From: Escherichia coli
Lineage (GTDB): Bacteria; Pseudomonadota; Gammaproteobacteria; Enterobacterales; Enterobacteriaceae
Strand: one strand, 5' to 3'
NCBI RefSeq assembly: GCF_001677475.2
Contig: NZ_CP015229.1
Length of the DNA: 64,000 nt
In this document: in pieces, positions 2,507 through 27,593 of the stretch
How the letters are laid out: each line of letters starts with the position of its first letter
How positions within the stretch are numbered: the stretch's first letter is position 1
Program-made: the position numbers and the translations under genes
Notes under the pieces: generated by a model
Seen by the model: the letters and a program-made list of their open reading frames with translations, nothing else
Databases searched by the model: none
Told to the model about the DNA's origin: nothing

Positions 2507-3154
2507 TTAGCTAATTGAAACGCCTTTCACCCCTGCCATACCTTTTAATAATCGCAACAGATCTTCTATCGACGTTGTGGCATGAAGCTGGATATCAATG
2601 GCGACCACTTCATGATCTTCATTTTCCTGCAACGAAACTAAATCAGTTTTTATTTTTTGCTGCTTAAACCAGTCGAGCATTGATACCGTATTACCGTTCA
2701 CTAATGTCAGCTGTAAATGGTAATTTTTGTTCATCAGGCGGAAGGTTAATTGATGGAAGACTTCCAGCACCAGTAAGGTCATCACTGAACCATAAATGCC
2801 CAGTTCGTACATACCGCTGCCAATAACCATACCAATGGCGGCGGTCACCCAGATATCCGCTGCCGTCGTCAGACCTACAATATTTTGGTTACGAACGAGA
2901 ATGTTACCTGCACCGATAAACCCGACGCCCGTCACCACCTGAGCAGCAATACGGCTGGGGTCCAGTCCGACGTGATCTAAAGACAGCACGTCAGCAAAAC
3001 CATATTTCGAAACAATCATAAACAGGGCGCTTCCCATGCCAATTAATACATGTGTGCGTAACCCTGCTCCTTTGCCGCGCATTTGCCTTTCCATGCCAAT
3101 AGCGCCACAGGCAATTGCCGCGAGTATAAGACGTATAATAAATTCTGCTGTCAT
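2507..3154 (-). CDS. yhiD: MgtC-family inner membrane protein YhiD, 215 aa
   Basis: Protein begins MTAEFIIRLILAAIACGAIGMERQ; start trimmed to that ATG (cat at 3152-3154 on +). Confidence 0.9.
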   Translation of the reverse strand: MTAEFIIRLILAAIACGAIGMERQMRGKGAGLRTHVLIGMGSALFMIVSKYGFADVLSLDHVGLDPSRIAAQVVTGVGFIGAGNILVRNQNIVGLTTAADIWVTAAIGMVIGSGMYELGIYGSVMTLLVLEVFHQLTFRLMNKNYHLQLTLVNGNTVSMLDWFKQQKIKTDLVSLQENEDHEVVAIDIQLHATTSIEDLLRLLKGMAGVKGVSIS

Positions 3155-3659: not shown

Positions 3660-3992
3660 TTACATATCTTTCTTAATTTTGTCCCATTCGCCTTTAACTT
3701 TATCTTTAAAGCTGGCTTTTTTATCCTGAGTACAAGCCTGAACGATAGCTGGGGTTACGGTTGCAATACCCTGAACATCTAAAACCGCATCTTCTGGTTT
3801 ATCTTTGTTGTTCAGTGCTTCAGCAAAACCAACTGCAGTTGGCTGGAAGGATTCGTCCACAGCCAGGAAATCTTCACAGGTCCAGGAGTTGACCGGTTTT
3901 TTGTTATCAGCTGCTTTTTGTGCATCCGCTGCATTGCTCACTACTGGCAGAAGAAGCAGACCACCAAGAATAACGCCTAATACTTTTTTCAT
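3660..3992 (-). CDS. hdeA: Periplasmic acid-stress chaperone HdeA, 110 aa
   Basis: Protein MKKVLGVILGGLLLLPVVSNAADAQKAADNKKPVNSWTCEDFLAVDESFQP... recognised as HdeA. Confidence 0.95.
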   Translation of the reverse strand: MKKVLGVILGGLLLLPVVSNAADAQKAADNKKPVNSWTCEDFLAVDESFQPTAVGFAEALNNKDKPEDAVLDVQGIATVTPAIVQACTQDKKASFKDKVKGEWDKIKKDM

Positions 3993-4246
3993 CGTAATAT
4001 CCTCAACTATAAAGTGAAAGAGCCGTCACGAATCAATTTCGACACTGAGGTTATAACCTGGTTTTCTGTATATGTCATGTTGATGGAAAATATCAAAATC
4101 AGATATTTTTATTTCAATACAATGAGTTACAGATACATCAGATACTGTAATTAGGAAATTTTTATTAAATCGCCTGCATTCTTAGACGCGTTTTTGGCAT
4201 AGATTGATAGCAGGGGATTTTCTTCTTAATTTTATAGGGTGGTTCT

Positions 4247-25664: not shown

Positions 25665-26432
25665 TTATAGCGCCAGAACCGCCGTATTCAGCGTTTCTAT
25701 CGGTGCCGGGCGTGAAAGAAACCAGCCTTGTGCGGCGAATGCGGGCGAGTTCTGAACATCACGCCACTCTTCCGGCGTTTCTACGCCCTCGACGATCACC
25801 CCGCGACAATAGCGATTCATTAGATGTAAAAGCTGAGAAAAGAGTGTGCGGCCTTCCGGCGACTGACGCAGCATCACAAACAGTTCTCGCGCGATTTTGA
25901 TGTAATCATAACGCACTTCACTTAGTGCAGAGAAATTTGCCATCCCGGTACCAAAATCATCCAGCCACAGCGGGCCAAATTCACACATCGAGGCAAAGGT
26001 TGAATCTTTCGGCAGACGGATATGCTCCACCAGTTCGAAACGCAGCCAGGGAAGACGCTCGATTTGGCGCAGGATTTTTGGTTGCTGGCGCAGGGCGATG
26101 AGCGTAGGGCCATCAATATTGACCGATGCCAGCAGGCCGTGCTCTATAAAGAAGTCGGCTTTTTGCGCCAGTAAATCAATCTGCTCTTTCACAACCTCCA
26201 TCCGATGGCTGACGGTGATTTCAGTAAAATAACGATCCGGCGGCAGGCGTTGCGAAGGGTTCAAGGGATGCGTGACCACCGTTAATAGCTCCACGGCCAT
26301 TAACCGCCCGCATGTTTGATAGATCGGCTGCCAGGTGTAAGCACGCTCACACTGCAACCAAAAACGCCGTTCCTGCAAGCTCTCGATGCTTGCTTCAGGG
26401 TTGCTTATTCGCTGGATAACCTGCCTTATCAT
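25665..26432 (-). CDS. pdeH: c-di-GMP phosphodiesterase (EAL domain only), 255 aa
   Basis: Protein MIRQVIQRISNPEASIESLQERRFWLQCERAYTWQPIYQ... with EAL-domain motifs; start trimmed to the ATG at 26430-26432. Confidence 0.9.
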   Translation of the reverse strand: MIRQVIQRISNPEASIESLQERRFWLQCERAYTWQPIYQTCGRLMAVELLTVVTHPLNPSQRLPPDRYFTEITVSHRMEVVKEQIDLLAQKADFFIEHGLLASVNIDGPTLIALRQQPKILRQIERLPWLRFELVEHIRLPKDSTFASMCEFGPLWLDDFGTGMANFSALSEVRYDYIKIARELFVMLRQSPEGRTLFSQLLHLMNRYCRGVIVEGVETPEEWRDVQNSPAFAAQGWFLSRPAPIETLNTAVLAL

Positions 26433-26576
26433 CAAAGATGTCCTGTGTTTAAAAGTGATGCTGCCCGGACTCGACAAAGATTATCGGCGCGCAAGGGCAG
26501 AACTTTACCGCCTGGCCGGGGTAAATTTCCCCACTCCACAACGGAATCTTTCAGGAATACGTTCTGGCTCAAAAAA

Positions 26577-26600
26577 ATAATGGAACACTGTTTTAATATG
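26577..26600. promoter_or_regulatory. Imperfect inverted repeat upstream of kdgK (AATAATGGAACACTGTTTTAATAT), possible KdgR operator
   Basis: GAACA-n-TGTTT half-sites seen about 65 bp upstream of the kdgK ATG; assignment to KdgR is from recalled consensus, not tested. Confidence 0.3.
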
Positions 26601-26663
26601 GTTGACCAGCAAACCACCACAGCGCAAACTAACGCTAATTTTTTACAGATCAGGTTCACGACT

Positions 26664-27593
26664 ATGTCCAAAAAGATTGCCGTGATTGGCGAATGCATGA
26701 TTGAGCTTTCCGAGAAAGGCGCGGACGTTAAGCGCGGTTTCGGCGGCGATACCCTGAACACTTCCGTCTATATCGCCCGTCAGGTCGATCCTGCGGCATT
26801 AACCGTTCATTACGTAACGGCGCTGGGAACGGACAGTTTTAGCCAGCAGATGCTGGACGCCTGGCACGGCGAGAACGTTGATACTTCCCTAACCCAACGG
26901 ATGGAAAACCGTCTGCCGGGCCTTTACTACATTGAAACCGACAGCACCGGTGAACGTACGTTCTACTACTGGCGTAACGAAGCCGCCGCCAAATTCTGGC
27001 TGGAGAGTGAGCAATCCGCGGCGATTTGCGAAGAGCTGGCGAATTTCGATTATCTCTACCTGAGCGGGATTAGCCTGGCGATCTTAAGCCCGACCAGCCG
27101 CGAGAAACTGCTTTCCCTGCTGCGCGAATGCCGCGCCAACGGCGGAAAAGTGATTTTCGACAATAACTATCGTCCGCGCCTGTGGGCCAGCAAAGAAGAG
27201 ACACAGCAGGTGTACCAGCAAATGCTGGAATGCACGGATATCGCCTTCCTGACGCTGGACGATGAAGACGCGCTGTGGGGTCAACAGCCGGTGGAAGACG
27301 TCATTGCGCGCACCCATAACGCGGGCGTGAAAGAAGTGGTGGTGAAACGCGGGGCGGATTCTTGCCTGGTGTCTATTGCTGGCGAAGGGTTAGTGGATGT
27401 TCCGGCGGTGAAACTGCCGAAAGAAAAAGTGATCGATACCACCGCAGCTGGCGACTCTTTCAGTGCCGGTTATCTGGCGGTACGTTTGACGGGCGGCAGT
27501 GCGGAAGACGCGGCGAAACGCGGGCACCTGACCGCAAGTACCGTTATTCAGTATCGCGGCGCGATTATCCCGCGTGAGGCGATGCCAGCGTAA
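26664..27593 (+). CDS. kdgK: 2-dehydro-3-deoxygluconokinase, 309 aa
   Basis: Protein MSKKIAVIGECMIELSEKGADVKRGFGGDTLNT... (PfkB sugar-kinase family); ATG verified at 26664; the ORF-track start at 26316 is a spurious extension. Confidence 0.95.
   Translation: MSKKIAVIGECMIELSEKGADVKRGFGGDTLNTSVYIARQVDPAALTVHYVTALGTDSFSQQMLDAWHGENVDTSLTQRMENRLPGLYYIETDSTGERTFYYWRNEAAAKFWLESEQSAAICEELANFDYLYLSGISLAILSPTSREKLLSLLRECRANGGKVIFDNNYRPRLWASKEETQQVYQQMLECTDIAFLTLDDEDALWGQQPVEDVIARTHNAGVKEVVVKRGADSCLVSIAGEGLVDVPAVKLPKEKVIDTTAAGDSFSAGYLAVRLTGGSAEDAAKRGHLTASTVIQYRGAIIPREAMPA

Follow-up and report, generated by a model that had tools for sequence, protein, structure and literature searches.

A predicted KdgR operator of kdgK in the divergent pdeH–kdgK region of Escherichia coli, adjacent to and separate from the FliA promoter of pdeH

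An imperfect inverted repeat upstream of kdgK in Escherichia coli raises two questions: whether it is an operator of KdgR, a repressor of the IclR family, and whether the control of kdgK is shared with that of the flagellar gene pdeH (yhjH), which is transcribed divergently from the same short region. We address them in a 64-kb stretch of E. coli DNA (64,000 nucleotides, the window). The flanking genes are identified as pdeH and kdgK by the list of open reading frames and by the RefSeq annotation of identical E. coli DNA. The pdeH gene, coding for a c-di-GMP phosphodiesterase, occupies positions 25665-26432 on the minus strand with its ATG at 26432-26430; kdgK, coding for 2-dehydro-3-deoxygluconokinase, occupies 26664-27593 on the plus strand and is preceded by a Shine-Dalgarno-like AGG at 26652-26654. 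The divergent region of 231 bp between them, claimed in an earlier reading made from the sequence alone, is exact and spans 26433-26663, from the pdeH ATG at 26432 (minus) to the kdgK ATG at 26664 (plus).

The region is found almost throughout the species. With 26333-26763 as the query, a match of 95-100% identity is found in 5421 of the 5426 complete E. coli genomes, and at least 80% of the query is covered in 5416 of them. In K-12 MG1655, where pdeH is b3525 (minus strand) and kdgK is b3526 (plus strand), the corresponding 231 bp occupy 3679188-3679418. Only two differences, at 26492 and 26531, distinguish the spacer of the window from that of K-12, and hence the window is not K-12; the first of them, C in the window and T in K-12, lies inside the spacer of the FliA promoter described below. 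The sequence NZ_CP033635.1, from a chicken isolate, is 100% identical to the window over 26333-26763.

The repeat had been quoted as the 24-mer AATAATGGAACACTGTTTTAATAT at 26577-26600, about 65 bp upstream of the kdgK ATG. The 24-mer is present and its 3′ end is indeed 64 nt before the ATG; its position, however, is 26576-26599, one base away from the coordinates given. As a bare palindrome it is unremarkable. An odd palindrome, it has its centre on C26588 and complementary bases in 8 of 11 pairs, and an equal or better one appears in 23% of the shuffles of the 231-bp region. Palindromes this good occur at 113 positions of the whole window, which amounts to 0.41 per 231 bp. Run with a seed of 6, a repeat search of the window missed the palindrome at C26588, the perfect core of which consists only of AACA/TGTT. 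Symmetry alone is not beyond chance, and the inverted repeat as such is weak evidence; it is the specific motif match, not the palindrome, that exceeds chance.

For the motif we used two descriptions. The one is the consensus AATRAAAYRNYRTTTYATT, which we take, after the Dickeya literature, to be that of the KdgR box (a literature search for the string gave no match). The 19-mer AATGGAACACTGTTTTAAT at 26579-26597 agrees with it at 16 of the 18 specified positions and is the sole match with at most two mismatches on both strands of the 64 kb, where 0.12 are expected; with three mismatches allowed one extra match appears in the 64 kb, against 1.35 expected. The other description is a position weight matrix that does not depend on AATRAAAYRNYRTTTYATT. 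It was built from the 22 unique 23-mers found as boxes upstream of kdgK in 25 Enterobacterales other than Escherichia and was symmetrised, which gives a 24-bit matrix with the consensus ATATTAAAACGACGTTTTAATAT. Its top score in the window falls on the 23-mer ATAATGGAACACTGTTTTAATAT at 26577-26599, whose dyad centre is C26588 and whose core is the 19-mer, and reaches 28.3 bits, a value that is partly circular in that the matrix was trained on orthologues of the tested site. The runner-up in the window scores 9.8 bits, so that the matrix scan proposed earlier as a check of the operator places the site far above background. In 200 random 64-kb sequences from a first-order Markov model the maxima have a mean of 11.8 bits and the largest is 23.4 bits; none of the 200 reaches 28.3 bits.

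The independent part of the matrix test comes from other genes of the regulon, kdgT, kduI and eda, since their promoters are not homologous to that of kdgK. In K-12 the matrix gives 22.9 bits at kdgT, two boxes of 28.6 and 18.7 bits at kduI, and 19.4 bits at edd-eda, in each case the top of the 6-8 kb region scanned. A scan of K-12 with the consensus AATRAAAYRNYRTTTYATT finds 17/18 at kdgT, and 18/18 and 16/18 at kduI, and agrees with the matrix on the eda site as well. The box associated with eda, ATTTTGAAACACCGGTCCAATAA, lies at 3095-3117 of the K-12 edd-eda sequence, within the 3′ part of the edd coding sequence and about 340 bp upstream of the eda ATG, and its place within edd would fit an internal KdgR-controlled promoter of eda. 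Two further matches were seen at 3830-3852 and 4129-4151 of the K-12 kdgR region, of which the one inside the kdgR coding sequence scores 17.3 bits and the one in the kdgR-yebQ spacer, immediately before kdgR, scores 13.2 bits. They may hint at autoregulation of kdgR. The kdgR mRNA is reported to be altered in a plaR mutant (Shimada et al. 2019, PMC6958661).

The kdgK box shares the half-sites (T/A)(G/A)AAAC-N3-GTTT(C/T)(A) with the KdgR boxes of Dickeya (Erwinia chrysanthemi), Pectobacterium and E. coli. Its target gene belongs to the same class, that of the 2-keto-3-deoxygluconate (KDG) and pectinolysis regulon, and nothing essential is different. Compared with these boxes it is slightly degenerate, having GGAAC for GAAAC on the left and TTTTA for TTTCA on the right; the left half-site specific to Escherichia, Citrobacter and Enterobacter is itself conserved. 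A CRP site (TGTGA-N6-TCACA) was considered for the same sequence and rejected, as the GGAAC/GTTTT half-sites of the box are 3 nt apart and there is no TGTGA/TCACA pair.

Conservation was followed in kdgK loci gathered with a degenerate DNA pattern for the N-terminus of KdgK (IGECMIEL), one genome per species. The 120 loci obtained were oriented on the kinase gene, and boxes were sought within 300 bp upstream of it. The window, E. albertii and 25 Enterobacterales outside Escherichia all carry the box, with its start between -79 and -123 from the kdgK ATG (-85 in the window). The genera that carry it include Citrobacter, Enterobacter, Kluyvera, Leclercia, Pluralibacter, Siccibacter, Yersinia, Serratia, Pectobacterium, Acerihabitans, Budvicia, Edwardsiella, Pantoea and Erwinia. 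At 81 loci of other taxa (Pseudomonas, alphaproteobacteria and others) the best upstream match to the consensus is at most 14/18 and mostly 11-12; for the kdgK-like genes of Pseudomonas and the alphaproteobacteria it is 14/18 or less. No box was found within 300 bp of the kdgK-like genes at ten loci of Vibrio, Psychromonas, Gilliamella and Orbaceae (best match 11-14/18), nor upstream of those of Proteus, Xenorhabdus and Endozoicomonas (best match 12-13/18). The kdgK-like genes of these groups, of Pseudomonas and of the alphaproteobacteria we treat as a background set and not as evidence; those of Vibrio, Psychromonas, Gilliamella and Orbaceae may be internal to operons, be paralogues or be under a different motif. 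In this sample the box is limited to Enterobacterales, and some members of the order are without it.

An alignment of the spacer from 16 Enterobacteriaceae, scored for each column as the identity to the E. coli base, resolves the 231 bp into discrete conserved blocks amid drifting DNA. The left half of the KdgR box (26579-26586) has a column identity of 0.86 and the right half (26590-26597) one of 0.96, while the central 3 nt (26587-26589) fall to 0.33. Such a pattern, with conserved arms on both sides of a free centre, is characteristic of a site bound by a dimeric helix-turn-helix protein.

Two further features were noted in these spacers. The moderately conserved block 26555-26570 (GAATACGTTCTGGCTC), which directly precedes the A-tract and the KdgR box, has a column identity of 0.68. 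It reads GAACACGCGCTGGCTC in the closer Enterobacteriaceae, and Siccibacter, Enterobacter sp. Ag1 and Klebsiella sp. BIGb0407 have lost it; it could be the site of another factor or reflect mere shared ancestry. Enterobacter sp. Ag1 is also the only one to carry a second box-like sequence, CGAAAAACAGCGTTTTTGT, which matches at 13/18 about -41 from the kdgK ATG, downstream of the predicted kdgK promoter, and may be an auxiliary operator.

The neighbourhood of the box indicates to which of the two genes it belongs. In tblastn searches with PdeH the divergent pdeH-kdgK pair is found in 15 Enterobacteriaceae with a spacer of 220-248 bp, and with longer gaps in Edwardsiella ictaluri and Yersinia artesiana. 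The same searches detected no PdeH homologue beside kdgK in the fetched DNA of Serratia oryzae, Pectobacterium, Acerihabitans, Erwinia, Pantoea stewartii, Pantoea sp. IMH and Yersinia aldovae, where the fetched DNA of some loci extends only a few hundred bases beyond the start of kdgK and the absence of pdeH is unproven there. The KdgR box is nonetheless present at these loci, and it belongs to kdgK rather than to pdeH.

A simple sigma-70 promoter scan called nothing in the region. The scan missed TTGACC-N17-CAAACT because of its weak -10, which matches at 3 of 6 positions, and it is the fixed layout across the order that leads us to take this sequence as the sigma-70 promoter of kdgK. The putative -35 hexamer TTGACC is located on the plus strand at 26602-26607, 4 bp past the 19-mer box, and has a column identity of 0.94; after a spacer of 17 nt it is followed by the putative -10 hexamer CAAACT at 26625-26630, with a column identity of 0.78. 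In Yersinia, Serratia, Pectobacterium, Budvicia, Edwardsiella, Pantoea and Erwinia a TTGAC(T/C/G) stands 3-5 nt past the box. The -10 columns elsewhere read CACACT, GAGAAT, GACAAT, GAGACT or AAAACT, always 17 nt after TTGACy. Across the order the layout is thus box-N3-5-TTGACy-N17-nAnACT (or GAGAAT/GACAAT). From these elements we infer a kdgK start site near 26637, and the centre of the box would then be at about -49, with its proximal edge touching the putative -35 hexamer. This geometry of operator and promoter is deduced from conservation; kdgK and yhjH are both absent from the supplements of PMC3415461, which were searched for start sites.

The other side of the region holds the control elements of pdeH. 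On the minus strand, 26481-26507 reads TAAAGTTC-TGCCCTTGCGC-GCCGATAA, a near-perfect sigma-28 (FliA) promoter about 48 nt upstream of the pdeH ATG. Its -35 element TAAAGTTC (26500-26507) has a column identity of 0.97 and its -10 element GCCGATAA (26481-26488) one of 1.0 among the 16 Enterobacteriaceae, and the 11-nt spacer between them (26489-26499) has 0.44. Compared with the class 3 promoters of sigma-28 (fliC, tar, motA, ycgR, yhjH), described by TAAAGTTT-N11-GCCGATAA, that of pdeH agrees at 15 of 16 positions and has the same 11-nt spacer, in which the difference from K-12 at 26492 should be without effect. Expression of yhjH that depends on FliA is published, and the motif found for yhjH by FliA ChIP-seq is TAAAGTTCTGCCCTTACGCGCCGATAAT, beside which the expression columns give 511 and 2 (Fitzgerald et al. 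2014, PMC4183435). The promoter in the window is identical to it save for the spacer base 26492, which bears out the expectation that the 231 bp also hold the class 3 promoter of pdeH. With the usual spacing of sigma-28 promoters the pdeH start site would lie near 26473-26474.

An inverted repeat GAACTTTACC/GGTAAATTTC was also observed at 26500-26529, with 90% complementarity and a gap of 10 nt, whose first arm is the FliA -35 element of pdeH. A second, divergent FliA -35 at this place was considered and rejected: the plus strand has no GCCGATAA-like -10 after it, and other genera do not keep the second arm. The repeat is probably due to chance.

The two control elements do not overlap. Between the FliA -35 element and the 23-mer KdgR box there is a gap of 69 bp (26508-26576), and the predicted start sites of kdgK and pdeH are about 163 bp apart and face away from each other. 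The stretch between the promoters (26508-26554) has a column identity of 0.37. The sequence-only reading had two unrelated regulons share one short control region. They are adjacent within the 231 bp as it stated; shared control does not follow, as about 70 bp of poorly conserved DNA separate the elements and nothing suggests an interaction. We conclude that the KdgR and FliA controls are adjacent, physically separate and independent, and that nothing supports cross-talk between them.

Other readings of the box have to be weighed against its assignment to KdgR. PlaR (YiaJ) is the other IclR-family repressor of plant-sugar catabolism in E. coli and recognizes a palindrome of the TGAAAC-N3-GTTTCA type, so one may ask whether the box is mainly or also a PlaR operator, with kdgK co-repressed by two paralogous repressors via one site. 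The gene kdgK is among the PlaR targets of genomic SELEX, and the target probes were shifted in gels; in both assays PlaR bound DNA upstream of kdgK. The PlaR box ATnTGAAACnnnGTTCAnTT resembles the KdgR box, and it was proposed that PlaR and KdgR jointly regulate kdgK, kdgT, kduI and eda (Shimada et al. 2019, PMC6958661). As an IclR-family palindrome the PlaR box has half-sites and spacing similar to those of the kdgK box. However, the gel shifts used 1-5 µM protein (PMC6958661), and in vivo ChIP-exo describes YiaJ peaks at yiaJ/yiaK and never mentions kdgK (PMC6237786). The strongest PlaR operator goes unrecognized by the matrix built from the kdgK boxes, which gives 28.3 bits at kdgK and at best -0.7 bits within the plaR-yiaK spacer, and the kdgK box is hence of the KdgR type and not of the type of the primary PlaR operator. 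Moreover, the box is conserved in Pectobacterium and Yersinia, where KdgR is the established repressor of pectinolysis. That PlaR also acts on kdgK via this site is thus a minority prospect, to which we give limited weight, and cross-binding by PlaR, itself rather unlikely, would be an additional and not an alternative role of the box. That the repeat is a chance AT-rich palindrome, or an A/T tract of the kdgK promoter similar to an UP element, with no repressor involved, we regard as scarcely credible. The symmetry is low enough for it, with only 8 of 11 pairs and 23% of the shuffles as good, and the repeat stands exactly at the place of an UP element with an A-tract (26571-26578) before it. 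Against this, the half-sites GAAC and GTTT are kept and the 3-nt centre is free across genera, as in the site of a dimeric protein, other promoters of the regulon, not homologous to this one, carry the motif as well, and kdgK is genetically under kdgR (PMC6958661, PMC6892915). We therefore reject the UP element as the only role of the repeat, as it is contradicted by the pattern of conservation.

The box might also be bidirectional, so that its occupancy by KdgR or PlaR modulates pdeH as well and couples the sensing of sugar acids to c-di-GMP turnover and motility. The sole support for this is the proximity of the two genes and their divergent order, which is kept from Escherichia to Yersinia artesiana and Edwardsiella. 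The centre of the box is, however, about 114 bp upstream of the predicted pdeH start, with unconserved DNA in between (0.37), the genes reported to be derepressed on deletion of kdgR do not include pdeH (PMC6892915), and the box persists where no pdeH homologue is detected beside kdgK in the fetched DNA. In the literature searched no paper mentions KdgR together with yhjH or pdeH. We consider such a bidirectional function very improbable. The same low expectation applies to a combined form of it, in which one box docks both KdgR and PlaR and in which its rigid position by the weak -10 (nAnACT), together with the pdeH-kdgK synteny, lets its occupancy tune the FliA-driven transcription of pdeH; if true, it would tie c-di-GMP breakdown and motility to the perception of plant sugar acids.

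Returning to KdgR, the published genetics point the same way. In a kdgR deletion the transcripts of eda, kdgT, kdgK and kduD are increased on Northern blots (Shimada et al. 2019, PMC6958661), and these genes are termed there known KdgR targets with a KdgR box, with reference to Rodionov 2000 and 2004; KdgR boxes in the hexuronate genes of E. coli are cited in the same paper as predictions of comparative genomics from these two years. In an i-modulon study, a strain with a deletion that takes in kdgR over-expresses kdgK, kdgT, kduD and kduI (PMC6892915). The gene kdgK, derepressed without KdgR (PMC6958661, PMC6892915), counts among the classical members of the kdg regulon of E. coli. The motif score, the boxes of other regulon genes, the conservation across genera, the fixed promoter layout and the kdgR genetics all agree with the operator that the sequence-only reading had suspected, and the element 26577-26599 is very probably the KdgR operator of kdgK.

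Hence, we suggest the following mechanism. Without the inducer, a KdgR dimer, or a dimer of dimers, would be bound to the half-sites (A)ATGGAAC and GTTTTAAT(AT) around C26588. The box would span about -59 to -38, where an UP element and the C-terminal domain of the alpha subunit (alpha-CTD) would make contact, and bound KdgR would block the access of sigma-70 region 4 and of the alpha-CTD to the -35 and upstream region. With its weak -10 the kdgK promoter would depend on those upstream contacts. Since a box near -49 also suits activators, it is from the genetics only that we infer repression by occlusion. With the breakdown of hexuronates and pectin KDG would accumulate and release KdgR from the box, and kdgK would be transcribed. 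For E. coli KdgR, KDG is the presumable inducer by analogy with the KdgR of Dickeya, for which it is given as cited in PMC7843439. Transcription of pdeH would proceed separately, by the FliA-containing RNA polymerase from the promoter 70-115 bp away. Taken as a whole, the mechanism, namely the occlusion of kdgK by KdgR, the release by KDG and the independent FliA-driven transcription of pdeH, has our strong confidence.

Last, the regulation of kdgK by KdgR is textbook knowledge and already known in substance, and the FliA control of yhjH/pdeH has already been mapped genome-wide. What is added here is a clean quantitative footprint of the KdgR box, a geometry of operator and promoter, box-N4-TTGACC-N17-CAAACT, that is conserved across Enterobacterales, and the physical separation of the two control elements of the 231-bp region. 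The value of these results is not that of a discovery and lies in annotation and perhaps in the design of promoters for KDG/galacturonate biosensors.
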